Shown piece by piece: positions 14,683-32,514 of a stretch of 64,000 nt of DNA; position 1 is the first letter of the stretch; every line of letters starts with the position of its first letter. This DNA is from Brevundimonas sp. (lineage in GTDB: Bacteria; Pseudomonadota; Alphaproteobacteria; Caulobacterales; Caulobacteraceae): contig NZ_DASPNO010000053.1 in assembly GCF_035626535.1 (NCBI RefSeq), positions 12,994 through 76,993 on the forward strand, written 5' to 3'. The translations under genes were made by a program, and so were the position numbers. A model generated the notes under the pieces. It saw only the letters and a list, made by a program, of their open reading frames with translations, made no database searches and was not told where the DNA came from.

Positions 14683-15146
14683 CCGCCGGCGGCTGGATCG
14701 GTGGCCGGATCCGGAGCCGCGTCCGAGGTCGGCTCGGTCGCGGCGAACAGCTCGAGGCTCCGATCTCCGGCCGGTCCGCGGACGGTGGCGCTGCGTCCGG
14801 TCACGGCGACCAGTCGCCATCCATCCAGGGTTTGCCCGATGGACACGCCCTCGACTTCGCCGGAGTCGGCGCTGCGCAAATAGGCGCGCCGGCCGGCGAG
14901 ACCGACCAGGACCGGGACGGCGGTCGGGGCGACTACGGTCGGTTCCGCTCCGGCCGCGTGAAGCCGAAGGGGAAAGCCCGCGACGGGACCGCTCCGGCGC
15001 GCCTGGTGATCCGCTCCGAAATAGCGGTCCACGCCCGGCGCTGCCGGGGGGCGGGCCGCGGCGGCCGGCCAGATCAGGATGACGAGCGTCGCCAAGGCGC
15101 ACGCGCCGAGAACCGCGGAGGCCCAAAGCCGCCCGAGCTGCGTCAT
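14679..15146 (-). CDS. T2SS accessory protein, GspN/GspC-like
   Basis: N-terminal TM; LVGLAGRRAYLR...GQTLDGWRLVAV; position in the gsp operon. Confidence 0.5.
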   Translation of the reverse strand: MTQLGRLWASAVLGACALATLVILIWPAAAARPPAAPGVDRYFGADHQARRSGPVAGFPLRLHAAGAEPTVVAPTAVPVLVGLAGRRAYLRSADSGEVEGVSIGQTLDGWRLVAVTGRSATVRGPAGDRSLELFAATEPTSDAAPDPATDPAAGG

Positions 15147-15628
15147 GCGATCACCATCAGCAGCACGAGCGCCACGGTCCCTTCCCGGGTCGGTCCGAGA
15201 CCGAGCGTCAGGGATTTGAGCCGGACGGCTTCGCGATTGACGGCGATCCAGTTGGCGACCGCGGCCGAGGCGGCGGCGTCGCCTAGCGCCTGGACGCGCA
15301 CCTCCGCGAGGTGCAGGCCGCCGCCCAAGGGGCGCAGGTTCGAAGCGTCCACCGCAAGAACCGTCAATCCCAGTTCGGCGAGCCGCCCGTTGAGGTGCTC
15401 GCCGATGGCGATCTCGGCGGTCGCGCCGTTGCGCCGCAGCAGGGGCCGTCCTGGCGTCCACGGCGCGGCCTTGTCGGCCGTGATCGGAGCGCCGCCCGGC
15501 CGGTCGCCGGCCGTCGTCACGGCGCGAAGATCGCGTCCCGCGGCAAGGGCGGAGGTCAGGGCGACAAGGGTGAGTCCGACGGCCGCCAGCGCCGCGCCCC
15601 GGTTGAGCCAGAGGGTGCGCCGCGTCAT
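15143..15628 (-). CDS. GspM-like T2SS protein
   Basis: N-terminal TM plus small alpha/beta C-terminal domain; follows the L-like gene with 4-nt overlap. Confidence 0.5.
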   Translation of the reverse strand: MTRRTLWLNRGAALAAVGLTLVALTSALAAGRDLRAVTTAGDRPGGAPITADKAAPWTPGRPLLRRNGATAEIAIGEHLNGRLAELGLTVLAVDASNLRPLGGGLHLAEVRVQALGDAAASAAVANWIAVNREAVRLKSLTLGLGPTREGTVALVLLMVIA

Positions 15629-16401
15629 CCGCAGACCTCGCTTGGGAAGGTCACGGCCAGAGTCTGGGCTCCGGCGGCCGGGGGCAACTCCAGGGCTGCG
15701 ACCAGGGATGCGGCGTCCGTTCCCGGGGCGAGCGTCAAGCTCACGCGCTGCCCGTCGGCGGCGGCGCCGGTCACCGCCACGCCGTCCGGGCGGACGGCCG
15801 CGATCCGGGTCGCCGCACACAGATAGCGGGTCGCGGCGTCGGTTCGCCCGAGAGCGGCCCAATCGGCTCGCGCCGCGGCCTGCTGGGCGACGAGGCGGGC
15901 CGCGCGGGCGGCGAGACGTTGTTCGGCGGCGATCTCGGGCAGGCGGCGTTCACGCCATTGCTCGGCCCGCAACTGCCCGGCCAGGGCGACCGCGGCGAGG
16001 CCGAGACAGACCATCGCCGCCCTGGGCGCATGCCGCAGCCACCGCGCCTCGCGATCGTCGACGGCGCCCGCGTTGCGGAAGCGGAAGACGACGTCCTGCC
16101 CGCCGACGGTCTTGGCGACCGCGACGATCCGCTGGGCGCCGAAGGCCGGATCGGCCAGGGCCGAGCGCCGCAGGACGCCGAGCGCATAGACGGTTTCGCC
16201 GGCCTCGTGGCCGAGCGGCGCCAGTTCGAAGACGGTGTCGGCGACGGGCAGGGGGGAGAGGCGGTCCAGCTGCAGGCGCGTGATGGCGCGCGCCTGCCGG
16301 AGCGACCGGGTCGGCAGCCGCAGCACGCGCGTCATCACCTCCAGCTCGGGTCGCGGCGCGGAGGCCGGCTTCAGGTCGAGGGAGAGGTCGTCGAGCGGCA
16401 T
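15625..16401 (-). CDS. GspL-like T2SS protein (short)
   Basis: LRLPTRSLRQARAITRLQLDRLSPLP (PilM/GspL-like), central TM, coiled coil. Confidence 0.6.
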   Translation of the reverse strand: MPLDDLSLDLKPASAPRPELEVMTRVLRLPTRSLRQARAITRLQLDRLSPLPVADTVFELAPLGHEAGETVYALGVLRRSALADPAFGAQRIVAVAKTVGGQDVVFRFRNAGAVDDREARWLRHAPRAAMVCLGLAAVALAGQLRAEQWRERRLPEIAAEQRLAARAARLVAQQAAARADWAALGRTDAATRYLCAATRIAAVRPDGVAVTGAAADGQRVSLTLAPGTDAASLVAALELPPAAGAQTLAVTFPSEVCG

Positions 16402-16775
16402 GATTGACTGACGGTATCGTATTCGCAGCGTTCGGGAAGGTCGCACCGGTAGCGGATGCGGTCTTTGGCCGACGCAGCGATCTCGGCGGCGTCGGGTCGG
16501 CACCCCGGCGCGGGCCGATCGGCGAGCCCCGCCTGGGACAGGGCGAGCTGCTGGCTGGCGCGGGCGAGCGCGGAATAGCCGGCGCCGACGCCGACCAGCA
16601 GAATCGAGGCGACCGTCATGGCGATCATCAGTTCGAGGACGCTGTAGCCGGCGCGGGCGGCACGACCGCTTCGACGACCAGGTCCGGGCCGAAGCGCCGG
16701 TCGACCACGATGCGCACCCGCCGCGCCGCGGACGGGACGTCGTCGGTGCCGGCGCCGGTGCTGGTGTAGGTCCAT
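16371..16775 (-). CDS. Minor pseudopilin, GspJ-like (start uncertain)
   Basis: Class III signal RAG|YSVLELMIAMTVASILLVGV. Confidence 0.7.
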   Translation of the reverse strand: MDLHQHRRRHRRRPVRGAAGAHRGRPALRPGPGRRSGRAARAGYSVLELMIAMTVASILLVGVGAGYSALARASQQLALSQAGLADRPAPGCRPDAAEIAASAKDRIRYRCDLPERCEYDTVSQSCRSTTSPST

Positions 16776-17014
16776 GAACGCCCCTCCGTCTCGCCGACCT
16801 GTTGTCCGCCGGCGCGCTCGCCCGCGTAAAGATCCTCGTAGAGATCGTCGGCGATCCTCGTCGCCGTCAAGCGATCTCGCGCCTGGGCCATGCGCGAGAC
16901 CGCGTTGGAGGCCAGCGCCACGGCGGCGGCGACCGCCAGAACGGTGATCGTGAGCGCCACCATGGCGTCGATGGTCAGATAGCCGCCGCGGGCGCTGCTT
17001 GCGTCAGGAGGCAA
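16628..17014 (-). CDS. Minor pseudopilin, GspI-like
   Basis: ARGG|YLTIDAMVALTITVLAVAAAV; GRSWTYT; size 128 aa. Confidence 0.7.
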   Translation of the reverse strand: MPPDASSARGGYLTIDAMVALTITVLAVAAAVALASNAVSRMAQARDRLTATRIADDLYEDLYAGERAGGQQVGETEGRSWTYTSTGAGTDDVPSAARRVRIVVDRRFGPDLVVEAVVPPAPATASSN

Positions 17015-18194
17015 CGGCGTCTCCCACAGCGAGCAAACCCTGGAACACCATCATGGTGATCAGTCCGACCATGGCGCCGACGACGATGATGACCAGAGGC
17101 GTGAGAACGGACAGCAGCCGTTCGATCGCTTCCTGGGCGCGAGCGCCCAGCAGCGCGGCGCCGTCGTTCAGAGCCGCGCTCACCTGCCCGGAGTGTTCGC
17201 CCATCAGGACATAGTGGATCAGGTCGGGGGGACAGGCGGGGATGCGCCGCAGCACCTCCGACAGTCGCACGCCTTCCATCAGACGCTCGTCCTGCGCCGC
17301 AAGGGCGCGGCCGAGCGAGCTTATGCTCACCGGCTCGCGGGCCAGCCGCCAGGCCGGCGCGAGGGGAACGCCGGCGTGGAGCATGACGGCGAGGCGGGCG
17401 GCGAGATTGGCGAAGACGAAGTCGCGCAGCGGCGAGCGCTTGCCGCGCATCAGCAGGCGGGCGACCCCATCGCCGGCCGAGCGCCGCACGGGCGCGAACA
17501 GCGTCATCGCGACGGCCAGACCGCCAGTCGCCGCGGCCAGAATGGGCAGCAACACCCGCACGATGACCCCGAAGGTCAGCACGGCCTGGGTCTGGGCCGG
17601 AATGTCGCCGCCCATGCCCTCGAACGCCGGCTCCAGGGAGGGGAGCACGGCGTAGGCGTAGATGGCGATCGAGCCGAGGGCGACGAGGATGACGAAGGCG
17701 GGGTAGAGGCACAGGGTGATCAGCCGCTTCTTCAGCTGATCGGCGGCGGCGAGCGACCGCGCTCCGGCGGCGAGCACCTCGCTCTGGCGACCGGAGGCCT
17801 CGCCGCCCCGGGCCAGGGCCTGCAGGAACCGGGCGGGCCCGCCGTCCGCGGCCTCGAGCGCGCGGGACAGGGGTTCGCCGGCGATCAATCGCTGTCGCAC
17901 CTCGCGGGCGATCGCGCTCATGCGTGGGGTTTCCCGCGTCTCCAGCAGGGCCAAGGCCTGGGCCAGCGCCATGCCGCTGGTCATCAGCTGGGCCAGGTCG
18001 CGGCCGAACCGCGCCGCCTCGGCGTCGGTCAGGCGCAACCCACCCCGCTGCTGCAGCAGGGTCGGCTGGATGGTGAGCGGGTGAAGGCGCGCCTCCACCA
18101 GACGATCGCGCAGGGCGGCCGCGCCCGGCGCATAACTGACCCCGCGCAGGCGGCGTCCGTCCGGGCCGAGCGCGGTATAGCGAAAGGCCTTCAT
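17004..18194 (-). CDS. gspF: T2SS inner membrane platform protein
   Basis: MKAFRYTALGPDGRRLRG, LAQLMTSGMAL, GEASG, LYPAF, GEHSG, LTPLVIIVVG. Confidence 0.92.
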   Translation of the reverse strand: MKAFRYTALGPDGRRLRGVSYAPGAAALRDRLVEARLHPLTIQPTLLQQRGGLRLTDAEAARFGRDLAQLMTSGMALAQALALLETRETPRMSAIAREVRQRLIAGEPLSRALEAADGGPARFLQALARGGEASGRQSEVLAAGARSLAAADQLKKRLITLCLYPAFVILVALGSIAIYAYAVLPSLEPAFEGMGGDIPAQTQAVLTFGVIVRVLLPILAAATGGLAVAMTLFAPVRRSAGDGVARLLMRGKRSPLRDFVFANLAARLAVMLHAGVPLAPAWRLAREPVSISSLGRALAAQDERLMEGVRLSEVLRRIPACPPDLIHYVLMGEHSGQVSAALNDGAALLGARAQEAIERLLSVLTPLVIIVVGAMVGLITMMVFQGLLAVGDAVAS

Positions 18195-19888
18195 CGGTCG
18201 GCGACGCGCCAGGCGTCGCCCCAGTCGAGCAGACCTTCCGCCGATTGTTCGAGCGCGTCCTGTCGCAAGGTGGCGTAGCCGGGCTGGTCGACCAGGTGTC
18301 GGCGCAGGATCGAGGCGTGGGCGCCCGCGCCGATCAACTCGCCCAGTTCGGGCGTGCAGACCATGAGTTCGCTCACCGCCCTCCGGCCGCGGCGCCCGGC
18401 CCCGCCGCAGGCGGGACAACCCTGCGCCCGTCCCACCAAGGACGGCCGCAGGGACAATCCGGCCTCACCCAGGGCGGCGGTTTCATCGGCGTCCAGCGGG
18501 CTGGTCGTCTTGCAGGCCTGGCAGAGCTGGGCCACGAGGCGTTGCGCCATGACCCCGATCAGGGCGTCGCCGAGCAGATAGCGCTCGACCCCCATGTCGA
18601 TGAGCCGCGACGGCGTGGTGGCCGCATCGTTGGTGTGCACGGTGGCGAGCACCAGATGGCCGGTCAGACTCGCTTGCACGGCCAGGCGTGCGGTTTCCGT
18701 GTCGCGGATCTCGCCGACCAGGATGACGTCGGGGTCGTGACGCAGAAAGGACCGCAGGGCGGTCGAGAAGGTGAAGCCGGCCGCCTCATTGACTTGGCTC
18801 TGCAGGATGTCCTCGAAGACGTATTCGACCGGATCCTCGACGGTGAGGATCTTGTTCCGGGCCGAGGCCAGTTGGCGCAACCCAGCGTAGAGGGTGGTCG
18901 TCTTGCCGCTGCCGGTGGGGCCGGTGACCAGCAACAGGCCGTGGCCGCGCATAAGGAGCTGGCTAAGGCCGGCGGCGACCGGGAGCCGCAGGCCAAGCCG
19001 CTCAAGGGAATAGTCGACGTCGCGCCGGGTGAGCAGGCGAACGACAAGGGATTCGCCGAACACCGTCGGCGCCGTCGAGATGCGGACATCGACCGGGACG
19101 CCGCGGACATTGATCGTGGTGCGCCCGTCCTGTGGGGCGCGGCGCTCGGCGACATCGAGGTCGGAGAGGACCTTGATCCGGGCGATCAGGGCCGGCCCGA
19201 TGTCGACGCCGAGCCGTTCCTGATCCTGCAAGGCGCCGTCGATCCTGAAGCGCACCCGGGTGTGGTCGCTCTTCTGCTCGACATGCACGTCCGAGGCGTT
19301 GAGCAGGAAGGCGCGCTCGAGGATCTGTTCGGAGAGACGAACGACCGGGGCGTCCCGGGCAATGTCCTTCAGCCGCTCGGCGTCATCCAGCCAGGTGGCC
19401 GCGGCGGCGGCCGGCCGCGCGGTCTCGGCGGCGGGTTCGGCCACGTCCTGCACGCGCCGCCAAGCGCTGAGCGTGATGGTGCGCACGGGGATGTCGCGGC
19501 CGAGCGCGAAGCGCAGCGCCTCGCGGGTGGTTTCGTCCCCGGGGTCGACCAGGCCGAGGCACCAGCCGCCCTCTTCGTCGGACATGGCGACGGCATAGCG
19601 ATCCTGCAGGAACCGCACGCTGAGACCCGGCAACTCCAGCCGCTCGATCGGAACGCCGTCGGGCCAACGCGGCGCGTCATGCAGGGCGCTGCAGGCCTCG
19701 GCGATCGCCTCTTCGGTGGCCAGGCCGAGCAGGCTCAAGGCCACGGCCAGCGGCTGACCCGAACTGGCGCTGGCGCGCTGGGCGCGGGCGAGGGCGCTGC
19801 CGCCCAACTGAAGGGCCTCGGCCAGGACCGACCGGGTGTCGGCGGGCGCCGGCAGCTCGAACTCGTCGACAGGTGTAGGTCTAACCAT
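18191..19888 (-). CDS. gspE: T2SS ATPase
   Basis: ASDVHVE, RFRIDG, QDGR, TGPTGSGKTTTLY, TVEDPVEY, LRHDPDVILVGEIRD, LTGHLVLATVHTN, CxxC motifs. Confidence 0.95.
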   Translation of the reverse strand: MVRPTPVDEFELPAPADTRSVLAEALQLGGSALARAQRASASSGQPLAVALSLLGLATEEAIAEACSALHDAPRWPDGVPIERLELPGLSVRFLQDRYAVAMSDEEGGWCLGLVDPGDETTREALRFALGRDIPVRTITLSAWRRVQDVAEPAAETARPAAAAATWLDDAERLKDIARDAPVVRLSEQILERAFLLNASDVHVEQKSDHTRVRFRIDGALQDQERLGVDIGPALIARIKVLSDLDVAERRAPQDGRTTINVRGVPVDVRISTAPTVFGESLVVRLLTRRDVDYSLERLGLRLPVAAGLSQLLMRGHGLLLVTGPTGSGKTTTLYAGLRQLASARNKILTVEDPVEYVFEDILQSQVNEAAGFTFSTALRSFLRHDPDVILVGEIRDTETARLAVQASLTGHLVLATVHTNDAATTPSRLIDMGVERYLLGDALIGVMAQRLVAQLCQACKTTSPLDADETAALGEAGLSLRPSLVGRAQGCPACGGAGRRGRRAVSELMVCTPELGELIGAGAHASILRRHLVDQPGYATLRQDALEQSAEGLLDWGDAWRVADR

Positions 19889-19961
19889 ATGAAACGCCGT
19901 GGACTCGGCTCCGCTCCCCCCTATAGTCGATCATGAGTAGCGTGTTGGTTCGGGGGGAGCC

Positions 19962-20420
19962 ATGGAGAAATCAGCCGAGGGCGCGAGACGAACCGCGCGC
20001 ATCCGCCGGGCGGGCTACACCCTCACCGAAATGCTGGTGGTACTGGTCATCATCGGCCTGATCAGCGCCATCGTCGTGCCCCAGACCCTCGGACAGATGG
20101 ACCGCGCCAAGGTACGGGCCGCCCGCCTGAAGATGGAGAGCGTGGCCGCCGCGCTGGAGATGTATTCCGCCGACTTGGCGCGCTATCCGACCCGCGAGGA
20201 GGGGCTGGACGCCCTCATGGATCCGCCCGAGGGCGTCGCCGAATGGGCGGGCCCCTACCTGTCGGATCCCGCGCTGACCAAGGATCCGTGGGGTCGCGCC
20301 ATCGTCTATGCGCCGCCCGCCGCGGCGGGAGACCGGTTCACCCTGACCAGCTACGGCGCCGACGGCGCCCCCGGCGGCGCCGGTTTCAAGCGCGACATCG
20401 TCCTGGGAACGGCCCGATGA
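19962..20420 (+). CDS. gspG: Major pseudopilin
   Basis: AG|YTLTEMLVVLVIIGL, YPTREEGL, WAGPYL, DPWGRAIVY, SYGADG. Confidence 0.93.
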   Translation: MEKSAEGARRTARIRRAGYTLTEMLVVLVIIGLISAIVVPQTLGQMDRAKVRAARLKMESVAAALEMYSADLARYPTREEGLDALMDPPEGVAEWAGPYLSDPALTKDPWGRAIVYAPPAAAGDRFTLTSYGADGAPGGAGFKRDIVLGTAR

Positions 20421-22444
20421 AGATCGCCACGCGCGCCCTTGTCGCGGCCGGTCTCGGCTTGCTCGCCGCCTGCGAGACCCCGCGGAGCATCCGTCCGGAT
20501 CTGGCGGTCATTCCGCAAAGCCGCCCCGCCGCTCCCGCTTCCGTTCCCGATCCGGCCCAGACGCCGGAGACCGCCGATGACCTGGCCTGGCGGATCGAGA
20601 GCGAGGCGCGGGTGCCGGCGTCGCCGGCGGTTGAGCGTTCGCCCGTGCGGACCTTCAATGTCGTGTTCGATCAGGCGCCGGTCGCCGCCGTCGCCGACGC
20701 GATCCTGGGGCAGACCCTGCGGCGCTCCTTCCGCATCGACCCGTCGGTGCAGGGCGCCCTGACCCTCAGCCTGACAGGTCGCATGAGCGAGGCCGAGGCG
20801 CTCGCCAGCTTCGATCGCGCCCTTCGCAGCCTCAACGCCGCCCTTGTCGCCGAGGGAGGCGGCTACGCCATCGTGCCCGCCGCCCAGGCGTCGCGACTGA
20901 ACGCCCCGCCCGTCGTCGCCCGGGAAGGGGTCGACGCCTTGGCCGGTACGGCCGTCTATCAGGCGAGATCGATCGGCGCGGCCGAGATCGCCCGCCTGCT
21001 GGAGCCGCTGGCCGGGGAGGGGGCCACCGTGCGGGCCGATCCCGCCCGCGAGCAGCTGTACATTTCCGGAGACCCGACCACGGTGAACGCCCTGGTGCGC
21101 ACCGCGCGGTCGCTCGACGTGGACTGGCTCGAAGGCAAAAGCCTGCAGTTCTTTCCCGTCCGGCACGCCACCCCGGCCGACATCGCCTCCGAAATCCGTC
21201 AGGTCTTCGGGGGGGCGGACGGCCCTATGGGCAACCAGATCCAGTTCATCGAGCTCGGTCGGCTGAACGGCTTGTTGGTCATCGCCCGCTCGACCGCCGG
21301 GCTCGATCGGGCGGCGGAATGGATCCAGCGCTTCGACCGCGCGCCGCCGCCGGCCGCGCGCCGTCTGCGTTCGATCCCGTTGGCCAACCTGGAGGCCGAC
21401 CAGTTCGTCACCACCCTGTCGTCTCTGCTCGGGACGGGGACGGCGGGCGCACCTGGGGCCACGGCGGCAGGGGAGTCCCCGTCCGCGGCGACGGCGCCCG
21501 CGTCCGCGGAGGGTTCGTCTCCCCTCGCCGGGTCGTCAGGCGCGGGGATGGCCGGGGCCCTGCGGCTGACCGCGGACGCGCGAACCAATTCCCTGATCCT
21601 GCTCGCAGACGACGCGGAATACCGCAACGTGCTGGACATTGTGCGCGAGCTCGACGCGCCGCCGCCGCAGGTGCTCATCGAGGCGACGATCGCCGAGGTG
21701 ACGCTGAACGACCGGCTGCGCTTTGGCGTGCAATGGTTCTTTGACGACGGCGACCTGACCGGCGGCTTCTCCTCGGGCGCCAATGATGACGCCGCGCCCG
21801 GCTTCCCTGGCCTCTCCGTCCGCTACCTGAACCTCGACGTTCGCGCCGTGCTGAACGCGCTCTCGACCGTCACCGACGTGCAGCTGATCTCCACGCCGCG
21901 CATCCTGGTGCTCTCCAACGAAAGCGCCGAACTGCAGGTCGGGGACCAGGTGCCGATCATCACTCAGACGGCGGTCGGGTTGAACGACGACAGCCGCATC
22001 GTCAACAGCGTGCAGTACCGGGACACCGGGGTGGTCCTGTCGGTGACGCCGCGGGTGACCGAGAGCGGGCGCATGTTCATCCAGATCGAACAGGAAGTGA
22101 GCGAGGTGTCCGGCACGACCTCGTCGGACATCGACTCGCCGACCATCCAGCAGCGGCGCTTGAGCACCCGCATCCAGGTCGAGGACGGGCAGCTCGTCGT
22201 GCTCGGTGGACTCCTTCGCTCCAGCCGCAGCCTGGGCGACACCGGCGTGCCGTACCTGAGCCGCATCCCGGCGCTCGGCGCGCTGTTCCGCTCGCGCGAC
22301 ACGACCGAGCGGCAGACCGAGCTGGTGATGTTCCTGCGTCCGACGGTGATCCGCGCCCGTTCGGACATCGACGCGGTCTCCGCTGAGATGGTGGCGCGGC
22401 TGCAGGCGCTGGGACTACCGGTTGAGACGCCCGTCGAGCCCTGA
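20417..22444 (+). CDS. gspD: T2SS secretin with lipoprotein signal
   Basis: MKIATRALVAAGLGLLAAC; TNSLIL, QVLIEATIAEV, QVGDQVPI, QYRDTGVVLSVTPRV, GVPYLSRIPALGALF. Confidence 0.93.
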   Translation: MKIATRALVAAGLGLLAACETPRSIRPDLAVIPQSRPAAPASVPDPAQTPETADDLAWRIESEARVPASPAVERSPVRTFNVVFDQAPVAAVADAILGQTLRRSFRIDPSVQGALTLSLTGRMSEAEALASFDRALRSLNAALVAEGGGYAIVPAAQASRLNAPPVVAREGVDALAGTAVYQARSIGAAEIARLLEPLAGEGATVRADPAREQLYISGDPTTVNALVRTARSLDVDWLEGKSLQFFPVRHATPADIASEIRQVFGGADGPMGNQIQFIELGRLNGLLVIARSTAGLDRAAEWIQRFDRAPPPAARRLRSIPLANLEADQFVTTLSSLLGTGTAGAPGATAAGESPSAATAPASAEGSSPLAGSSGAGMAGALRLTADARTNSLILLADDAEYRNVLDIVRELDAPPPQVLIEATIAEVTLNDRLRFGVQWFFDDGDLTGGFSSGANDDAAPGFPGLSVRYLNLDVRAVLNALSTVTDVQLISTPRILVLSNESAELQVGDQVPIITQTAVGLNDDSRIVNSVQYRDTGVVLSVTPRVTESGRMFIQIEQEVSEVSGTTSSDIDSPTIQQRRLSTRIQVEDGQLVVLGGLLRSSRSLGDTGVPYLSRIPALGALFRSRDTTERQTELVMFLRPTVIRARSDIDAVSAEMVARLQALGLPVETPVEP

Positions 22445-23090: not shown

Positions 23091-23894
23091 TCAGGGGCCG
23101 ACCTCGCACTGGTTCTCGCTGGTCGGAACGCATTCCTCGCCCAGGCCGACCTCGACGGTGACCAGGCCGGTGTCGGTCCCGCCGTGGCCGTCGCTGACGG
23201 TGTAGGTGAACGAATAGGAGCCGGCCGTGGCCGGCGCCATGTAATCCACATAGCCGCCGCCGCTGGGTATGGTGGCGGACCCGCCGGTCACGTTCGACAC
23301 GCCGGTGACGGTCAGGGTGTGGCCGTTGGCGTCGGTGTCGTTCGAGAGGACGAAGATCGACTGGGACAGGCTGACCGTGGTGCTGGCGGTGTCGTCGATG
23401 GCAACCGGCGCCGCGTTGGCCGACGATACGGTCACCGTCACGGTCGCCGTCGCCGTGCCGCCCGCGTTGTCCGAAATCGTGTAGGTGAAGTTATAGGTCC
23501 CGACCGCGGCCGGCGCCGTATAGCGGACATAGGTCTGGCCGCCCTGGATGACGACGCTTCCGCCGCTGGGCGTCCCGACCTGGATGACCGTCAAGCTGTT
23601 GCCGTCGGGATCGCTGTCGTTGGCGCGAACGGAAATGTTGACGCTGGCGGAGGCGCTGACGGAGGCCGTGTCGTTGACGGCGACCGGCGGCGAATTGGGC
23701 GGTTGCGAGGTGACGATCTGGGTGCGGTTGCCGGCGGCGTCGTAGCGATACTGGATGACGACGCCGTTGGAATAGATGGCTTTGATCAGCCGCCCCGAGC
23801 TGTCGTAAACGTATTGCACATCGGCTGAGGCCGGCACCGCGGCGAACAAGGCCAAAGCCGTGACGCCAACCTTGAGGAGTGATCGCAGGGTCAT
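23091..23894 (-). CDS. Secreted protein: signal peptide + YD-repeat hairpin + two cadherin/Ig-like (Big_9-type) domains
   Basis: ALFAAVPASA|D; YVYDSSGRL...YRYDAAGNRT; twice PVA.DD...NDxDxxG...FTYT.SD.xGG. Confidence 0.85.
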   Translation of the reverse strand: MTLRSLLKVGVTALALFAAVPASADVQYVYDSSGRLIKAIYSNGVVIQYRYDAAGNRTQIVTSQPPNSPPVAVNDTASVSASASVNISVRANDSDPDGNSLTVIQVGTPSGGSVVIQGGQTYVRYTAPAAVGTYNFTYTISDNAGGTATATVTVTVSSANAAPVAIDDTASTTVSLSQSIFVLSNDTDANGHTLTVTGVSNVTGGSATIPSGGGYVDYMAPATAGSYSFTYTVSDGHGGTDTGLVTVEVGLGEECVPTSENQCEVGP

Positions 23895-24253
23895 TGCGTG
23901 GCCGGCTCCGAACGGTTGGCCGCCGCCAGGGTCGGCGAGAGGTCGGCCTGCATGGCTGCCGCCGCGGACTGACTGGCGCGCCACTCCTGATCGGTCGGCA
24001 GGCGGGGCGGCCCGGGCTGGCGATCCGGCTGAAGCACGACCCAGAGAGAGCCGGCGATCAGAACGGTCAAGGCTCCAGCGACGCCGGCGCGCGGCCAGGA
24101 AACGGCCGCCGCGCGGTCCCTCCAGCTGACGGCGCCGGCCCAGCGATTCCCGTCGAACGTCAGGCGGGCTTCATGTTCGAGCCAGGCGACCCCGCTGCGG
24201 ATTCCGCGCCCGGTTCCGTCCAGCCACTGTGCGGCCCGCGCCCGAATGTTCAC
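23891..24253 (-). CDS. Hypothetical single-TM protein
   Basis: AGVAGALTVLIAGSLWVVL; ATGA overlap with the downstream YD/Ig gene. Confidence 0.6.
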   Translation of the reverse strand: MNIRARAAQWLDGTGRGIRSGVAWLEHEARLTFDGNRWAGAVSWRDRAAAVSWPRAGVAGALTVLIAGSLWVVLQPDRQPGPPRLPTDQEWRASQSAAAAMQADLSPTLAAANRSEPATQ

Positions 24254-24396: not shown

Positions 24397-27300
24397 GTGA
24401 AGTTTTGGGTGGATCGCATCAGGCCTGCGGGCCGCGTCCTGACCGGCAAGGGCGCCGTTTTCGCCACGCTGGCCCTGGCGGCTGTCGCGATCGTCGCGTC
24501 ACTGGCGCTGCTGAAGCCCTTCGCTTGGGCGCAGACCTGGCCCGCCTACTACAACTCCGCCCAGACCCCGTCCGATCTGCCCGGCATGCGGCTCTCGCTG
24601 CAGTACAACCTGGTCTCCCCGACCAGCAGCGATCTCGTCACCGTTTACGGCACGCCTGCCTCTCCCGCAGCGCCTGCGCCCAGCGCTCGTATCGTCGCCC
24701 TGGCGCGCTCGCTGGAGAACGACCCGGACCGGATTTACCAATTCGTCCACAACAGCATCCTGTTCGAGCCGCAGTTCGGGCTGCACAAGGGGGCCGACGG
24801 GGTGCTGCTGGACGGATCGGGCGGATCCTTCGATCAGGCCCAGCTCATGGTCGAGCTGCTTCGGACGTCGAACATCCAGGCCCGCTATGTGTTCGGCACG
24901 GTCAACCTCACCGGCGCGGATGCCAAGTCGATCTTGCGGGTCGATACCGGCCGTCAGGCCTGCATCCTGCTCGCCACAGCGGGTACGCCCGCGACGATCA
25001 ACAACGGGACGACCTCGTGCGCCAATCTGGGCGCGACCCTATCCGACGTGCAGATGCTGCACGTCTGGGTCGAGGCGTTTATCGATGACCAGTGGTACGC
25101 CTTCGATCCGTCGCTGAAGACGACAACCAAAATCACCGGCGTCGATTTGTGGGCAGCGGCCGACACGAGTGCGTCGGCGGCCTGGAGCAACGTCTCCTCG
25201 GGGGTATCTGTCAGCGGCGGCGACCTGAACGGCGTCAACGCGACCCACATCGAGAACGATATGGTCGCCTACGCTATGGCGCTGCAGACCAACTTGATCA
25301 ACAACCACACGGAAAAGTCGCTGAAGCAGCTGACCGGCGGCTGGGAGATCGTCCGCACCGAGGCGGCCCCGCGCAATATCACCCTGCCGCGGCAGGCCAG
25401 CGTCTCCACCCGCTGGACCGGCGACGTGCCGACGCCCTATCGGGCCACCCTGCGGCTGCAGGCGGCGGGCTTCGATCATGTCTTCGACCTGCCGAGCATC
25501 TACGGTTGGCGAACCCAGGCGCAGTTTCGAGACGGCGTTCTACGGGTTGCCGTCCGCAAGAAGGAACACCTCGACGCTGATGCCGCGGCCTACTTCGCCG
25601 ATGAGCTGGATGGTGGTCTGTCGATCAATCCGTGCGACGGTGTTCACGTCTTTTGCGCCAACGTCCCAGGACAGCATCCGCCTGACGGGCGCCGGCTCAC
25701 CATGACCATCGACCACCCGTACGCCGCGCGCAAGACTGGGGCTCCGACAGCAAACCTGGGCACCTTCGGCGATGAAACCGTCGTTAAGCAACTGCAGGCG
25801 GGCAAGCGCGCTGACATACTCCTGCGCACAGCGGGGGGCAACGGCGGCCGCAAGGCCGCCTGGGCCGCCGCGTACGACCCTATCCAGCAGCATCGTATCG
25901 TCCCCGCCGGGCGCGACTTTGACCAGTGCTACCTGAAGCCCCCGGTCTGGAACCCGGATCTTGAGCGTTGGGAGTGGCACGTAGACAGCCCGAGCGATTG
26001 CGATGAGGCGACCGGCGTGGATTGGCGTTATTGGGTGCCGGACAGCGCCTATGGAAACGGTCCCTTCGCTACGGGAGAGGTCGCCGTCGCCGAGATGGGA
26101 ACCCGCAAGGACTCCCTGCTCAACGGCTGGACCGATCTGTTCGACGGGACCGTCGCTATCCTGGAGCCGCTGTCCGGCGCGCGCATTTTTCACCAGCATT
26201 CCATCGGCGTGGCGCTCACGACCGGTGACAATGTCCTGGATATCGAGACGTCGGTCGGCATCGCCGCCAATGGCGCCGATCAGCCGCATCATATTCTGTC
26301 GGCCCTTGCGGCCCTGGCGGTGACGGAGGAAGCGCTGGCGCTGAGCCAAAGCGGGATGGAGCGTCCGTCCTTTAAGGGCTCGCCTTTCCAGGTCATCACT
26401 GCGCCACGGCGTCTGGCGACCGGCACGGGCCTGAAAGTTCTGACGGCGCCTGGTTCGACCACGAGCCTTCCAGCAGACGTAAATGCCGACACGAAGGACA
26501 GGATCGAGGCCTATCTAACCAAGGGCTACTCCGTCGTGGCGACCACGACGGGCGGCGTGAATGCCTTCCTGGCGCGGCGCAACGATGGGTCGGAGCAGGC
26601 GTGGATCATCCGCTCTTCGGCCGAAGAGACCGGTCATGCCAATCCATTGATCGCTTTCCGTAAGGGCGCGGAGCAGGAGACCCCCAATCCGGTCGATTAT
26701 CTCGGCAAGGCGGAGTCGCGGCGGATAGCGGCCAATGTCGCCGGCTCCCTGCTCGGCGCCGTGGACCTTCGAACCGGCACACTCTCCTTCAGCGAGGGAG
26801 CCGAACTCTCGATCGGTCAGGGCGACTTCCCCTACAGCCTCAGTTTCTCGCGCAGCTATGTCTCAACCGGGCCCATGGAGGGAACAAGCGGCTTGGGCAT
26901 GGGCTGGACACACAATTGGGAGAGTTCGGTCAGCCACGCCATGGATGTCGGCACCCTGTTGCCTCAGGCCGGGACGGAGACTGCGGCGCCTATGCTGATG
27001 GCGGCGATGATCGCCCTGGAAGCGGGGCGAGCCGACACCCTCCAGGCCGCCGTTGTTTCGGGGATCGCCCTGGATTTCCTGCAGGAGCAGGTCGCCACCA
27101 ATATCGTCACCGTGAGCGGCGGGGGTCAGTCCAGCCGCTTCGTGCGCATGGTCGACGGGAGCTGGCGCAATCCGGCCTCACCGACGGAATCCATCGCGCC
27201 CGCCAGCGCGCCGTTCATCGGCGCCGATACGCGCGAGATCAACTGGACCCTGGCCGACGGGTCGGTGATGGCGTTCCGCGATGTCGAGAACCCCAGCACC

Positions 27301-30300
27301 TTGTCCACCTCCACCAACCTTCATGGCGTCGCGACATCCTGGACCTTCCCCACGGGCGTCGTGATCACCCTGACCTACGGCGGGGGAACGGACACCAATA
27401 CGCCGGCGCTGGAGTCGGTCTCGAACAATCTGGGGGCGACGCTCACCTTCACCCATACCCAGACGCCGACCCAGGCGATGATCGAACACTGCCCAACGAT
27501 GGGGGACCCGCAAGCGTGTCATGAGGCGCTGAGCGGCGGCGGCCGTCTGACCAAAGTCCAGGCGGGGCCTGACGAGATCAACTTCGAACACCTGACCTAC
27601 TGCCCGCAGTTCGTCAATTTCTGCGCTTTCCAGCTGTACAGCGCGCAACGGCCCGGACTGCGCAAGCGGATCTATACGTACGGCTTCCCCACGGGCGGCT
27701 TGGCGACGGCGGTCTTTCCGATGGATTATCAGCAGGTCCTGACCCAAGTGAGTGATGAAGGCGTCACGACGCCGCGAGCGCGGTTCGACTGGCGCGCCGT
27801 CGGCGGCCAAGTTGCGCCTTATGTGGCCGAGGCCTTCGACGCCCAGAACCGCAAGACGGTCTACTATCCCTCGACCTTCACCTACTCCGCGGCCAAGGAC
27901 GCCACGGACGCGGTGATCCGGCAGACCTACGACGACGATGGGCGTCTGGTGACGGCGGCGGACGCCATGGGCCGGACCTCCCGCGCCCGCTACGACGGGG
28001 CCGGCCGGTCGAGCTGGATGCAGACGCCTTGGGGCGACACCACCGAGTTCACCTACGACAGGCTCGGCAACCTCAGAGAACGCAAACAGTCGCCGCTCGC
28101 CAACTGCGCCACCGGTCTGACTGTCCAGCAGCAGGCTTGGTGGTGCCAGGAGATCGTCGTCAAGGCGGAGTACGCCAACACGACGTGGCCGACCCGGCCG
28201 ACCAAAATCGTCCTGCCCGCGACCGAGGCGGATCCCCAGGTCCGCGAGTGGGAGATGGAGTACAACTCCCAAGGGCTGGTGACCCTGATCAGGGGTCCGA
28301 GGGTCGAGAACGGGCTTAACAACAATGTCCTCGAGCACCCGACCTGGGCGACCGGCTATGACAATCGGGGTCGGCCTGTGTGGACGCAGGATCCAACTGG
28401 CATCCGGTCAACGATGGCGTACGGTGAGTCCACGATGCCGGCTTTCTGCCTGACCTCCACGACCATGTCGGCTCAGCCCGCTGGCGTGGCCGGGATGATC
28501 ACGAGGATGGAATGCGACGTGGTCGGCAACGTCACCAAGGTGACCGACGCCCGCAACAACGTCACCACATCGACCTATGATAACCTGCGCCGCAAGCGGA
28601 CCGAAGACGGGCCGGCCAGCACGGCCATCAAGACCATCTGGAGCTACAATATCGATGGGGACCTGGACCTGGTGCGGCAGTGGGACTCGACCGGCAACAC
28701 GTGGCGTGACACCATCACCGCCTATTCGGCGACGCACAAGCCTCTGACCGTGACAGACCCCGACGGCGATCTGACCCGGACCTGCTACGACGCCGTGGAC
28801 CGCCCGGTGACCGTGATCGACGGCGAACGCCGGGCCACGCACACCGTCTATAACGCAGCCGGTCAGCCGACCGAAATCCATCGCTTCCAAAGGGCGGCGG
28901 CGGGCTCCTGTGGGTTCTCGACCGAGCTGCCGCAGGACGCCGGCTTCACCGAGACCCGCTGGCGGCGCTTTCAATACAATGCCGGAGGCTTGCAGAGCGC
29001 GGAAATCGACGCCCGAGGCAACGTCACCCAGCAGCAGTACGACGGCGTCGGCCGGCCGATTCGAACCATCTACCCGAACACCCTGCAGGCGTGGACGGCG
29101 ATGGACGAGCGGGGGCAGGTGGTAGTGCGCAAGACCCGCGCCAATCACTGGGCGAGCGTCTTCTACGACGGCATGGGCCGGGACTTCCACGTGCGGGAGT
29201 ACGCCAACAGCGAAACCGCCTACAAGTACAGGGGCCGCAACAGCCGGGCGAACTACGACCTGGCTGGCCGACCTGTCTGGCGGGCGGTGTCGAACCAGAC
29301 CACGCAGACCAATACCTACGATGAGGCGCTGAACCGCGATGTCCGAACCTATAGCTATGACCAAGCCGGACGGCTGACCTCCGAACAGTGGCGGCCGGAG
29401 GGCGTGGCGGGGATCAGCTTCACCACCGGGTACGGCTACGACACTGTCAGCAACCGGACCTCGATCACTTGGCCGGGCGCCTGGACAGCCGCTTACGCCT
29501 ACGACGCGGCCAATCGGGTCAAGTCGGTGAACTTCCCGGGACCCGCAGGCGCGCCGCAAGTCGTGGCCCTGGACCACGACTCTCTCAGCCGCCTCACTAG
29601 AATGGATCGGCCGGGTGCGGCCGCCGACACCACCTACACCTATGATGCGGATAGCGATCTTGCGGTGCTGAGCCATGGCTTTGTCGCAGGAACAGGGCCG
29701 GGGGCGGTGAGCTTCTCCTACGGCCACGACGCGGCGGGCAAGATTACCTCGATTGGGATTGATCAACCGGCCTTCGAGTGGATGCCGACGCTGACATACG
29801 CCCGCAGTTACGGGGCGGCGAATGTGATGAACCAGGTAGCGTCCGAGACGGATAGTGTTACATCGAGGGCGCTATCCTTCGACGGCAACGGCAACCTGTC
29901 CCAAGAGGTGCGCACGCCCGTCGTCGGCGGGACCCCGGTCACCTGGACCTATCACTGGACCTACGGCAACCGCTTGGGTGTGGTCACCAACAACGCCGCG
30001 GTTTCGCCGCTGACTGCGAGTTACCATTATGACTCCGATGATCGCCGCACCAAGAAGGTGGTCAACGGAGTTACCCGGCGGATGATGTGGTCGGGGATGG
30101 ATGAACTAGCGGAGTATGACGTTAACGGCGACTTGCTCCGACGCTTTATCCCCGATGGCACGGGCGCGATGGACGCACGGCTGGCGACGGTGACACCGAC
30201 AGGGGACGTCTACTGGCATCACACCGACCACCAAGGGTCGGTGATCGCCACGTCGAACAGCGCCGGGGAGACGGTCGGTGTGGCCAGCTATTCGCCTTAC

Positions 30301-31086
30301 GGAGAGTTCGGGGGCGATGCGACGACGACGCCGCAGCACAGTCCGTTCGGTTATGCCGGGCGGCAGTACGATGAGGAGACAGGGCTGTATCAGTACCGGG
30401 CGCGATACTATTCTCCGCGCTTGGGACAGTTCCTGTCTAGTGATCCGATTGGGACTAAGGACGATCCGAACCTGTATCTCTACGTCGCAAACGATCCGGT
30501 GAACCTGACCGATCCGACCGGGATGGAATGCAAGAATAACACTGAGGCAGGGACAACGAACTGCGTCACCAAAGACTACAATGTCACATTCAAGACGACG
30601 GATAGTTTTCCTGGGACTGACGCCTCGCGAAGCGACTTCCACTATTATGACGAAACCGCGCAGTCACACTTGGGCGTCGATGCGACCAGGAATTGGGTTC
30701 AGCAGAACCCCACGCCGGGCGATCCTAGCCCTGCGACTCCGGGCGGTACTAGAAATGATGCCACACCAGTGATTGGCGGACTGCCCGGGGATATCAGTCC
30801 CGTATCGTCGATCACGACTACCAATACGGTCAGTGGAAATCCTGTGGTCGTGAACGTTACCTTGCCGGGCCATCCTCTTTTCCCTGGTATAGTCGTTCGG
30901 GAGGTGGTGCCTAACGCCGACGGCACTTCAACCATTCATAATCGGGGTGAGGGCAATGGCGACCTGCAGCGACCGGGCGCTCCTTTTGCCGGGGCAATCA
31001 ACGGCGTGTGGAGAGGTCAGCGTCCGCCTCCGCCGACTCGGCCCTCTGGCCCAACGTGTTCTTACACATTGATGGGATGCCGATGA
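24397..31086 (+). CDS. RHS/YD-repeat polymorphic toxin with Sec-like signal, transglutaminase-like domain, DUF6531-like domain and unknown C-terminal domain
   Basis: N-terminal hydrophobic stretch ending AWA|Q; DQAQLMVELLR..ARYVFG..HVWVE..FDP; GLGMGWTHNWE; many YD repeats; YRARYYSPRLGQFLSSDPIG...NDPVNLTDPTG. Confidence 0.95.
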   Translation: MKFWVDRIRPAGRVLTGKGAVFATLALAAVAIVASLALLKPFAWAQTWPAYYNSAQTPSDLPGMRLSLQYNLVSPTSSDLVTVYGTPASPAAPAPSARIVALARSLENDPDRIYQFVHNSILFEPQFGLHKGADGVLLDGSGGSFDQAQLMVELLRTSNIQARYVFGTVNLTGADAKSILRVDTGRQACILLATAGTPATINNGTTSCANLGATLSDVQMLHVWVEAFIDDQWYAFDPSLKTTTKITGVDLWAAADTSASAAWSNVSSGVSVSGGDLNGVNATHIENDMVAYAMALQTNLINNHTEKSLKQLTGGWEIVRTEAAPRNITLPRQASVSTRWTGDVPTPYRATLRLQAAGFDHVFDLPSIYGWRTQAQFRDGVLRVAVRKKEHLDADAAAYFADELDGGLSINPCDGVHVFCANVPGQHPPDGRRLTMTIDHPYAARKTGAPTANLGTFGDETVVKQLQAGKRADILLRTAGGNGGRKAAWAAAYDPIQQHRIVPAGRDFDQCYLKPPVWNPDLERWEWHVDSPSDCDEATGVDWRYWVPDSAYGNGPFATGEVAVAEMGTRKDSLLNGWTDLFDGTVAILEPLSGARIFHQHSIGVALTTGDNVLDIETSVGIAANGADQPHHILSALAALAVTEEALALSQSGMERPSFKGSPFQVITAPRRLATGTGLKVLTAPGSTTSLPADVNADTKDRIEAYLTKGYSVVATTTGGVNAFLARRNDGSEQAWIIRSSAEETGHANPLIAFRKGAEQETPNPVDYLGKAESRRIAANVAGSLLGAVDLRTGTLSFSEGAELSIGQGDFPYSLSFSRSYVSTGPMEGTSGLGMGWTHNWESSVSHAMDVGTLLPQAGTETAAPMLMAAMIALEAGRADTLQAAVVSGIALDFLQEQVATNIVTVSGGGQSSRFVRMVDGSWRNPASPTESIAPASAPFIGADTREINWTLADGSVMAFRDVENPSTLSTSTNLHGVATSWTFPTGVVITLTYGGGTDTNTPALESVSNNLGATLTFTHTQTPTQAMIEHCPTMGDPQACHEALSGGGRLTKVQAGPDEINFEHLTYCPQFVNFCAFQLYSAQRPGLRKRIYTYGFPTGGLATAVFPMDYQQVLTQVSDEGVTTPRARFDWRAVGGQVAPYVAEAFDAQNRKTVYYPSTFTYSAAKDATDAVIRQTYDDDGRLVTAADAMGRTSRARYDGAGRSSWMQTPWGDTTEFTYDRLGNLRERKQSPLANCATGLTVQQQAWWCQEIVVKAEYANTTWPTRPTKIVLPATEADPQVREWEMEYNSQGLVTLIRGPRVENGLNNNVLEHPTWATGYDNRGRPVWTQDPTGIRSTMAYGESTMPAFCLTSTTMSAQPAGVAGMITRMECDVVGNVTKVTDARNNVTTSTYDNLRRKRTEDGPASTAIKTIWSYNIDGDLDLVRQWDSTGNTWRDTITAYSATHKPLTVTDPDGDLTRTCYDAVDRPVTVIDGERRATHTVYNAAGQPTEIHRFQRAAAGSCGFSTELPQDAGFTETRWRRFQYNAGGLQSAEIDARGNVTQQQYDGVGRPIRTIYPNTLQAWTAMDERGQVVVRKTRANHWASVFYDGMGRDFHVREYANSETAYKYRGRNSRANYDLAGRPVWRAVSNQTTQTNTYDEALNRDVRTYSYDQAGRLTSEQWRPEGVAGISFTTGYGYDTVSNRTSITWPGAWTAAYAYDAANRVKSVNFPGPAGAPQVVALDHDSLSRLTRMDRPGAAADTTYTYDADSDLAVLSHGFVAGTGPGAVSFSYGHDAAGKITSIGIDQPAFEWMPTLTYARSYGAANVMNQVASETDSVTSRALSFDGNGNLSQEVRTPVVGGTPVTWTYHWTYGNRLGVVTNNAAVSPLTASYHYDSDDRRTKKVVNGVTRRMMWSGMDELAEYDVNGDLLRRFIPDGTGAMDARLATVTPTGDVYWHHTDHQGSVIATSNSAGETVGVASYSPYGEFGGDATTTPQHSPFGYAGRQYDEETGLYQYRARYYSPRLGQFLSSDPIGTKDDPNLYLYVANDPVNLTDPTGMECKNNTEAGTTNCVTKDYNVTFKTTDSFPGTDASRSDFHYYDETAQSHLGVDATRNWVQQNPTPGDPSPATPGGTRNDATPVIGGLPGDISPVSSITTTNTVSGNPVVVNVTLPGHPLFPGIVVREVVPNADGTSTIHNRGEGNGDLQRPGAPFAGAINGVWRGQRPPPPTRPSGPTCSYTLMGCR

Positions 31087-31490
31087 TGCACGGCTTTAAT
31101 ATTCGAGCTGGGTTGGCGTTTCTGATTGCACCAGTCGCTTTTGGAATTCTGGCTTTGTTAGTCGCAACGATTTCGGGCAACGCCTCTGAAGGGCTTTGGG
31201 CGCTGAGATTGTCAGCAATGCTCGGGTATCCAGTTGCGCTGCTAACCGGGCTTCCCGCGTATCTGTGGATGACCCAAAGGCGGTGGGTCGGCCTGCCTGC
31301 GTACCTCGGCTTGGCCGTAGTCTACGCGGTCGTCTTGTCGGTGTGGCTATTCCTTAGGCCGGCATTGATGAGGCCAGAACACCTAAATCTGAATGCTCTA
31401 GCGCTTCAAAGCGGAGCGGTGCTGATCGGATGTACCATCACCCTAGTGATATTCTGGCTGATCGCCCGGCCGGATAAAGGGGGTCGGTGA
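31083..31490 (+). CDS. Putative membrane immunity protein (about 4 TM)
   Basis: ATGA overlap with the RHS stop; hydrophobic throughout; lower GC, like the RHS tip. Confidence 0.7.
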   Translation: MMHGFNIRAGLAFLIAPVAFGILALLVATISGNASEGLWALRLSAMLGYPVALLTGLPAYLWMTQRRWVGLPAYLGLAVVYAVVLSVWLFLRPALMRPEHLNLNALALQSGAVLIGCTITLVIFWLIARPDKGGR

Positions 31491-31533
31491 GCGACCGAGT
31501 GCCGGATAAAGGGGGTCGGTGAGCGACCGAGTG
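31470..31533. repeat. Exact 32-bp tandem duplication
   Basis: ccggataaagggggtcggtgagcgaccgagtg at 31470-31501 and 31502-31533. Confidence 0.95.
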
Positions 31534-31595
31534 CAGGATAGGCTTCGCGCCGACATTGTCTGACAGCCTTGGCCGTAGCGGCACGCCGTTCCGGC

Positions 31596-31724
31596 TCAGC
31601 GCTCGTGGTGGTCGCGCGGCTTGGACAGGGCTTGGAGGAGCGCCTTGAGGGCGTAGAGGCCGGCGATGCCGGCTCCGACGACGGCCAGGCCGATGACGAA
31701 GTTGATCGTGAATGCATCGGCCAT
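31596..31724 (-). CDS. Small membrane protein (42 aa), below the ORF-track threshold
   Basis: MADAFTINFVIGLAVVGAGIAGLYALKALLQALSKPRDHHER; strongly GC3-biased codons. Confidence 0.6.
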   Translation of the reverse strand: MADAFTINFVIGLAVVGAGIAGLYALKALLQALSKPRDHHER

Positions 31725-31954
31725 GGTTCGGTCCGCTTCGGGGTCCGGGCGCCGAGGCGCCCCTGTCGCGGTCAAGGATAGCCCAGCGGCTGGTCGTCGG
31801 CGAGGTTCGGCCGAGCGCCTAGAGGGAGTGAAGGCCCCGCCCTAGATCCCGCTCACCCGCGTTGGAATCGAGCGCTCCTCACTATCGCAATCCGAGCACT
31901 CGCACCCCGCGCTGTGTACAGAATCCAGAGCTAAGAAGCTGTCAGGTGATTTAA

Positions 31955-32257: not shown

Positions 32258-32514
32258 GTGCTGATCCACACACGCTGCAATAGTCGGGCTCACCTTTCCA
32301 AGTCTCACCAAGTACCGCCGCGCCGCCGACAGCACGGCTGTGTGGCACCGTCCGCCTCAAGGGAAACCTGGCTTCGATTATTCACAATAGTTTATGCAAA
32401 GTAGGGATTCGACTCCGGTGGGGCGAATGTCTGCACTTCATCGCTGAGCTCGGTCGGTCCTCCTGTCACAAGAGCAGTCTGCAGGAAGACTTGGGGGCGA
32501 GGAGTGCTGACGCC

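Follow-up and report, generated by a model that had tools for sequence, protein, structure and literature searches.

The window, a stretch of 64,000 nucleotides from Brevundimonas sp. (NCBI RefSeq assembly GCF_035626535.1, contig NZ_DASPNO010000053.1), contains a gene for an RHS polymorphic toxin whose last 187 residues, referred to as the tip in the following, belong to a widespread, strongly conserved and unnamed C-terminal RHS cargo family. The gene directly downstream codes for a small protein of four transmembrane (TM) helices. Very likely, the tip serves as the toxic cargo of a polymorphic RHS system, with the downstream gene providing immunity to it, and it appears rather probable that the tip acts at the inner membrane from the periplasmic side. 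From the comparisons described below, we infer the toxicity of the tip and its neutralization by the product of the neighboring gene, as well as the compartment of action and the nature of the target. Taken together, these elements are read as a Sec-exported RHS cargo toxin that would hit an inner-membrane target from the periplasm and would be blocked by its 4-TM immunity protein, a reading to which a probability of about 0.55 is assigned.

A conserved cargo family at the C terminus of RHS proteins

The core of the RHS protein terminates with SDPIGTKDDPNLYLYVANDPVNLTDPTGM and is followed by 187 residues. A DPxG(L/M) self-cleavage motif is situated immediately before the tip (NDPVNLTDPTGM/ECK), at which cleavage is predicted from the sequence. 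As residue 2043 of the protein begins at nucleotide 30523, the segment from 30523 to 31083 corresponds exactly to the 187-residue tail that the initial annotation had placed downstream of a DPxG motif. The composition described there, a domain rich in Pro, Thr and Gly with the motifs NVTLPGHPLFPGIVVR and NRGEGNG and four Cys residues, was recovered in full: Thr, Gly and Pro contribute 24, 22 and 22 residues (68 of 187), and the Cys residues occupy tail positions 3, 14, 178 and 186. The conserved core comprises tail residues 1-167 (30523-31023), and the Pro-rich end with the second Cys pair is variable. The tip is hydrophilic, with a grand average of hydropathy (GRAVY) of -0.57 and an isoelectric point of 5.7, and exhibits no TM-like segment.

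When 1.84 billion representatives of clusters at 50% identity were scanned exhaustively with phmmer, 283 of them proved related to the tip at E ≤ 1e-3, and 126 relatives remained at E ≤ 1e-10. In a search confined to the tail, 20 RHS carriers of 1285-2229 amino acids were retrieved, with tail identities of 39-62%. In about 170 relatives, no more than 0-25 residues separate the end of the domain from the protein C terminus, and this placement holds for nearly all family members; it is the position expected for the cargo of a polymorphic toxin and argues for this assignment. In an alignment of 169 tips, C3 and S/T96 are found in 100% of sequences, G142 and G144 in approximately 100%, H40, N78, N111, T113 and H117 in 99%, C14 in 98%, and Y42 and Q149 in 97%, while conservation is slightly lower for R126 (91%) and E143 (87%). 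The polar set of H40, Y42, N78, S/T96, N111, T113, H117 and Q149, usually together with R126 and E143, looks like a putative catalytic or ligand-binding site, as judged from this conservation. Additional Cys pairs near the C terminus were observed among the aligned family members. One member, P0150 (402 amino acids), carries an approximately 195-residue repeat tail rich in Tyr, Ser and Asn (…SYNYTTGYNYGSLYTP…) after the tip and has neither a signal peptide nor an RHS part.

Public databases give the family members no name beyond “hypothetical protein” or “RHS repeat-associated core domain-containing protein.” None of the named toxin-tip families (HNH/AHH, deaminase, ADP-ribosyltransferase (ART), EndoU, Ntox, Tox- families) was matched by the window tip at E ≤ 1 in Pfam and NCBIfam, and 20 tips scanned singly against Pfam gave zero family matches even at E ≤ 10. 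Searches of PHROGs and PADLOC with the tip and the downstream protein yielded no match, sequence and profile searches of the PDB with the tip returned chance-level matches only, and a tblastn search of the PLSDB plasmids returned nothing. It had been stated beforehand that no HNH, deaminase, ADP-ribosyltransferase or EndoU motif is recognizable in the domain, and these profile searches bear this out. As far as computation can show, the proposal of a new toxin family holds as well, given the number of cluster relatives, the lack of a library match and the co-conserved membrane protein downstream. A weak match of the segment LPGHPLFPGIVVRE to FabZ (E 0.16 in the PDB, 0.061 in NCBIfam) was considered and dismissed as chance similarity: the catalytic His of FabZ (HFPxxPxxPG motif) aligns with T113, the matched segment is a β-strand in the structural model, and no FabZ/FabA-type hotdog protein occurs among the fold matches.

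The AlphaFold2 (AF2) model of the tip, obtained with a 20-sequence alignment, reached a pLDDT of 90.5 and a pTM of 0.85. It exhibits strands at residues 2-6, 11-15, 20-24 (short) and 40-48, a helix at 52-61 followed by a Pro-rich loop, strands at 76-79, 93-101, 106-113, 122-130 and 136-144, and a helix at 156-165, with the last 20 residues being poorly ordered. On the two strands predicted to form the first hairpin (2-6 and 11-15), C3 and C14 lie in register, so that a cross-strand disulfide is geometrically plausible. A Foldseek search, which had been recommended together with the initial annotation, revealed no close relative in the PDB (best E 3.7e-3, none below 1e-3). Without exception, the 50 best PDB fold matches are helix-grip proteins of the START/Bet v 1/PYR-PYL/AHSA1 type (SRPBCC), and the resemblance is weak, with TM-scores of 0.28-0.47 normalized to the query (TMq) and of at most 0.55 normalized to the target (TMt). 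The same search against the viral BFVD database found nothing. As modeled, the tip has the β-α-β(5)-α order of secondary structure elements known from SRPBCC proteins, which are its sole consistent fold neighbors in the PDB. What sets it apart from them is the additional, predicted disulfide hairpin at the N terminus, along with a Pro-rich loop and the shortness of the C-terminal helix, and it has no Pfam match.

Linkage of the tip to small membrane proteins

The downstream gene had been described as coding for about four TM segments, and this was substantiated by both structure prediction and hydropathy. The AF2 model of the 135-residue protein, built from a 14-sequence alignment (pLDDT 83.8), consists of helices at residues 7-30, 34-66, 71-96 and 103-128, and the hydropathy profile concurs. 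Lys and Arg counts favor a topology with both termini in the cytoplasm and very short periplasmic loops. The reading frame is open from position 31008, and the alignment of homologues supports the ATG at 31083 as the start codon, which overlaps the stop codon TGA (31084-31086) of the RHS gene in an ATGA arrangement. The family is characterized by R8, an IAP motif in helix 1, a GYP motif in helix 2, G56-x-P58 and a C-terminal FWLIARPD. Pfam scans of 14 of these proteins, each taken singly, matched no family, and a Foldseek search of the model against the PDB found no fold neighbor.

The linkage of the two genes was analyzed in the window and 27 other loci: RHS homologues that were looked up exactly contributed five of these, and a survey with one genome per species the remaining 22. 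Hidden Markov models of both families, tip and immunity, were run against all loci; the genome survey used a 4-sequence tip alignment and is therefore biased toward tips that retain the VVVNVTLP/GHPLFPG motifs. In 23 of the 28 loci, the window included, the start of a gene from this 4-TM family lies only a few bases from the toxin stop codon. Thus, the organization of a variable tip with a small downstream gene is found, with one tip on RHS bodies of 1285-2229 amino acids, a recurrent 4-TM partner and ATGA coupling. The pair is spread over Alpha-, Beta- and Gammaproteobacteria as well as Acidobacteriota. Its hosts include Brevundimonas, Robiginitomaculum, other Caulobacterales, Micropepsaceae, Solilutibacter, Rhodanobacter, Dyella, Massilia, Methylococcaceae, a metagenome-assembled genome of Enterobacterales and Acidiferrales (Acidobacteriota).

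The remaining loci show different arrangements. In two of them (L012, 629-1036; L014, 8535-8909), the tip is followed by a second polytopic membrane protein of about 125 amino acids, which both loci share and which is unrelated to the main family. A third type of membrane protein (95 amino acids) follows the tip in a Bryobacteraceae locus (L022, 8208-8492). Two loci are uninformative, as L025 exhibits no evident open reading frame (ORF) for a membrane protein downstream and L027 contains only a weak tip fragment. Consequently, every informative locus has a small integral membrane protein as the partner, drawn from one of three unrelated families.

The partner was found to diverge faster than the toxin. 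In the closest locus, which also belongs to a Brevundimonas sp., the toxins are 81% identical and the partners 66%, and the respective values for the next two loci are 64-67% and 37-39%. Faster divergence is usual for immunity genes.

Within the genus and family of the host, the distribution of the tip is sporadic: of 121 genomes from the family, 3 contain it, and it was absent from all eight other genomes of the genus that were sampled. The tip-immunity cassette has a GC content of 0.57-0.61, compared with approximately 0.65 for the RHS body and 0.70-0.75 for the flanks. The low GC content and the rarity among relatives suggest that tip and immunity gene form a separately acquired, exchangeable cassette. 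A 32-bp unit is tandemly duplicated over the last codons and the stop of the immunity gene, possibly as a recombination scar at the cassette boundary.

The drop in GC content (0.57-0.63) extends over positions 30000-32500 of the window, from the tip across the immunity gene to roughly 1 kb past it. Two small ORFs are located in this low-GC region past the immunity gene: one on the forward strand (31955-32257) codes for a Cys-rich protein of 100 amino acids with a lipobox-like LVAC motif, and one on the reverse strand (31596-31775) codes for 59 amino acids with a single hydrophobic helix. These ORFs could be orphan immunity-like genes or could be unrelated to the system.

Carrier protein and export context

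The RHS gene (Table 1) fits the description of a polymorphic toxin carrier, with shell repeats matched by PF05593 (E 1.4e-19) and TIGR01643 (E 1.2e-18). Its transglutaminase-like domain occupies the N-terminal place where RHS proteins of type VI secretion systems (T6SS) have PAAR. The N-terminal region of another tip carrier, P0021, is very similar to that of the window protein, and those of P0007-P0009 are more distantly similar.

Table 1. Coordinates of the features discussed, numbered from the first nucleotide of the window.
Feature	Position	Strand	Basis
RHS polymorphic toxin gene	24397..31086 (stop included)	+	2229 aa; Pfam RHS_repeat, DUF6531, Transglut_core; NCBIfam Rhs_assc_core, YD_repeat_2x
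N-terminal Sec-type signal or anchor	24397..24531	+	Hydropathy: hydrophobic residues 21-39, AWA/Q at 43-46
Transglutaminase-like core domain, RHS N terminus, residues 99-238	24691..25110	+	Pfam PF01841, E 1.6e-12
RHS-associated core and C-terminal autoproteolysis motif (…DPIGTKDD…NDPVNLTDPTGM)	30289..30525	+	TIGR03696, residues 1965-2043, E 3.4e-25
C-terminal toxin tip (putative), unnamed family, 187 aa	30523..31083	+	Family searches, alignment, AF2 model
Immunity candidate, 135 aa, four-helix membrane protein	31083..31490	+	Homologue alignment, AF2, hydropathy, 23/28 loci
32-bp tandem duplication, 2.2 copies, unit GCCGGATAAAGGGGGTCGGTGAGCGACCGAGT	31469..31540		Tandem Repeats Finder
Compact cluster resembling a type II secretion system (prepilin peptidase A24, GspF, GspE, GspD secretin)	13939..22444		Pfam
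Small secreted protein with YD repeat and Big_9/cadherin-like Ig domains, divergent from RHS gene	23091..23984	-	Pfam

Signal-peptide-like N termini were recognized by inspection in 18 of 20 full-length tip carriers. PAAR was found neither in a Pfam scan of the window RHS protein nor in the precomputed domain lists of the 20 carriers, and the host assembly (2.74 Mb, 92% complete), which has one copy of the tip, contains no gene for the T6SS sheath protein TssC. Hence, the features of T6SS-dependent RHS effectors, i.e., a PAAR or prePAAR domain or VgrG linkage together with a genomic T6SS, were not detected here, and the N terminus is of the Sec type. Instead, a cluster resembling a type II secretion system (T2SS) and the gene of a small YD/Ig protein are located directly upstream of the RHS gene. 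A similar context was observed elsewhere, as the neighborhood of the tip carriers in L001, L002 and L005 likewise includes a secretin, GspE/F or the YD/Ig protein; T2SS genes are found near the RHS gene in L002 and L005, and YD/Ig homologues upstream of it in L001 and L002. The T2SS cluster is probably the export route across the outer membrane, without a T6SS. Two RHS carriers, P0016 and P0020, have an N-terminal Peptidase_C39 domain of the bacteriocin-processing type in their precomputed Pfam lists, which hints at yet another export route.

Several members of the family dispense with the RHS cage. These short forms of about 245 amino acids (P0195, P0197-P0199, P0202 and P0206) consist of a signal peptide, the last peptide of the RHS core (A/RFLQxDPxGY...DPxG) and the tip, and are accompanied by their own 4-TM partner in each locus that was examined. 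The short form of Solilutibacter silvestris AM20-91 (L010, 7797-8925) is a stand-alone gene, with an in-frame stop codon 10 codons upstream, no co-oriented RHS gene upstream and a 4-TM partner of its own. Another cultured carrier, Asticcacaulis tiandongensis, has the tip in its RHS form. A few tip members bear other, unrecognized N termini, and Pfam scans of ten tip-bearing proteins with non-RHS N termini produced no match.

Proposed mode of action, alternatives and relation to known systems

In the proposed mechanism, the 187 residues past the RHS self-cleavage motif would constitute the encapsulated cargo of a Sec-exported polymorphic toxin, whose carrier would cross the outer membrane, probably by the T2SS and without involvement of a T6SS. 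The tip is predicted to fold as a disulfide-stapled N-terminal β-hairpin followed by an antiparallel β-sheet packed on two helices, and would act on a membrane-embedded target from the periplasmic side of the inner membrane, with a lipid-linked envelope precursor or another membrane lipid as the favored guess. Producer cells would be protected by the four-helix immunity protein, which is translationally coupled to the toxin and would block the tip at or within the membrane.

Action at the membrane or within the periplasm had already been proposed in the initial annotation, and the support obtained for it here is indirect. The near-invariant Cys pair, in register on the hairpin, and the further Cys pairs fit an oxidizing compartment and thereby point to the periplasm. 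The Sec signals and the stand-alone signal-peptide forms agree with this location: because the tip would enter the periplasm of the producer by Sec, in some members without an RHS cage, protection would be needed there. The partners, which belong to three families, argue for action at the inner membrane, as they are always embedded in it and possess almost no soluble part. The suggestion of a lipid-linked or lipid substrate is tentative. It is favored since the tip is a soluble module with a polar site whose sole fold neighbors bind hydrophobic ligands, and since TM immunity proteins, including a 4-TM type, as well as a START-like helix-grip tip in one system, were described for polymorphic toxins that target lipid head groups (PMC12419801). 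Along these lines, an undescribed enzyme or ligand-extracting fold might attack a lipid-linked envelope intermediate from the periplasm and be neutralized in the bilayer by the four-helix protein, a possibility that, in this specific form, is to be regarded as speculative.

Several observations weigh against the proposed mode of action. The START-like resemblance of the tip is weak by both E-value and TM-score, its C-terminal helix is short in the model (10 residues), and an hhalign comparison of the tip family with 18 Polyketide_cyc2 proteins of related genomes gave a probability of 0.24%. Owing to these weak TM-scores and the low profile-profile probability, the tip is not placed in the SRPBCC superfamily; at most, the modeled fold can be called distantly helix-grip-like, and with such a weak fold link the idea of a lipid target draws mainly on analogy. 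The most conserved residues of the partner (R8, G56, P58 and FWLIARPD) are predicted at the cytoplasmic ends of the helices and thus provide no pointer to a periplasmic interface. Furthermore, the identities of toxin and partner to the window pair are weakly correlated across loci, and this correlation is not significant (rho 0.32, p 0.19).

The membrane partners are also compatible with a permeabilizing toxin that inserts or oligomerizes at the inner membrane and dissipates the proton-motive force, with the 4-TM protein blocking it in the bilayer. Pore-forming colicins, Tse5/Tsi5 and Ssp6/Sip6 are the models for such a system. Polytopic membrane immunity is a hallmark of pore-forming bacteriocins and effectors, three unrelated families of small membrane proteins follow the tip, and no enzymatic family was recognized for it. 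However, the hydrophilic tip contains no TM-like or glycine-zipper helical segment as expected of a colicin- or Tse5-like pore former, it is predicted to be compact, β-rich and globular, and its approximately ten near-invariant polar residues are more typical of an active or binding site, which renders permeabilization unlikely. These residues, a constellation of the His/Ser/Asn/Glu type, would suit a periplasmic cell-wall enzyme, i.e., a peptidoglycan hydrolase, amidase or transferase with an unusual membrane immunity protein, and the conserved disulfides and Sec export would place the tip in the appropriate compartment. Yet no peptidoglycan-enzyme family was encountered in Pfam or NCBIfam or among the top 50 PDB fold matches, and the partner is made almost wholly of TM helices, whereas the immunity proteins of T6SS amidase and muramidase pairs are normally soluble periplasmic proteins or lipoproteins. 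A cell-wall enzyme is therefore improbable as well.

Most characterized RHS tips work in the cytoplasm, and the location of the most conserved partner motifs (R8, G56/P58, ARPD) on the cytoplasmic side would be in line with an enzyme that crosses the inner membrane of the target cell, such as a nuclease, an NAD(P)ase or an enzyme modifying proteins of translation or division, and that the membrane protein neutralizes at the cytoplasmic face or bars from entry. This scenario is quite unlikely in view of the invariant Cys pair of the disulfide type and the additional Cys pairs, the existence of stand-alone signal-peptide forms, the lack of a nuclease, deaminase, ART or NADase match in the profile and fold searches, and a partner with almost no soluble domain. 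Finally, the two genes might not constitute an antibacterial pair at all: the cargo could be aimed at eukaryotes or be a secreted ligand-binder, with the partner serving, for example, as a receptor or export helper. Such a function would agree with the release of T2SS substrates into the medium instead of into neighbor cells and with the fact that helix-grip-like proteins are usually binders and not toxins. It is very unlikely, though, considering the classical polymorphic-toxin layout with the tip after the cleavage motif, the coupling to a fast-evolving small downstream gene, the sporadic spread and the cassette GC content below that of its surroundings. A periplasmic toxin with an inner-membrane target and a 4-TM immunity protein is the preferred reading.

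The system shares the RHS β-cage, the aspartyl autoproteolysis motif and a variable C-terminal tip with an adjacent immunity gene with the RHS effectors of the T6SS, for example, P. aeruginosa Tse5/RhsP1-Tsi5 and the RhsA proteins of known structure (PMC8765631, PMC8636562). The immunity protein of Tse5 is likewise a small inner-membrane protein. In contrast to these effectors, the window RHS protein has a Sec signal and a transglutaminase-like N terminus and is devoid of PAAR, prePAAR or VgrG, with no TssC found in the genome; unlike Tse5, its tip is hydrophilic and β-rich and not a hydrophobic helical pore former. Rhs families associated with the T2SS were reported in Xanthomonas and Ralstonia, most of whose tips have no assigned function (bioRxiv 10.1101/2025.05.08.652813). 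A further system for comparison is BCN-A, an Rhs-type bacteriocin found in X. perforans (PMC7259588). The window RHS gene resembles the Xanthomonas and Ralstonia genes in adjoining gsp and not T6SS genes, but its host is a Caulobacterales-like alphaproteobacterium. The association of RHS proteins with the T2SS is thus not new in itself, and an RHS tip with an immunity gene in the absence of a T6SS is an already known type of system.

With respect to the proposed target, the tip can be compared with the colicin M class, TelC/TipC and Lipocone (PMC12419801), which likewise combine a soluble secreted domain with an extracytoplasmic, membrane-embedded substrate, as proposed for the tip, and with membrane-bound immunity. 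The analogy is functional only, as no likeness of the tip to colicin M, TelC or Lipocone was detected in Pfam or among the top 50 Foldseek matches in the PDB. The START-like tips described in the same study occur in Bacteroidota as lipoproteins that are joined to a cystatin-like domain, and their immunity proteins are of the BamE-like or jelly-roll type (PMC12419801); they differ from the window tip in that they are not RHS cargo and have no 4-TM partners. No library or paper that could be searched describes the tip family or the immunity family, and the fold of the tip is without a close solved relative.

Uncharacterized RHS tips are common, with approximately 70% of tips lacking an assigned function in one recent survey, and the family presented here is therefore a solid lead and not a surprise. 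New antibacterial activities and new cellular weak points have come to light repeatedly through RHS and related polymorphic toxins. Given the size of the family (283 clusters at 50% identity) and its phylogenetic breadth, hundreds of proteins would gain an annotation from a single set of experiments, for which the short forms of the S. silvestris AM20-91 type represent convenient minimal systems in a cultured strain. The pairing with membrane proteins, the conserved disulfides and the Sec/T2SS carriers point to an envelope target that is reached without a T6SS, and a defined activity of the tip could expose a new vulnerability of the envelope. If a periplasmic attack on a lipid-linked intermediate proved true, the family would represent a new class of envelope-targeting antibacterial toxins with T6SS-free delivery.

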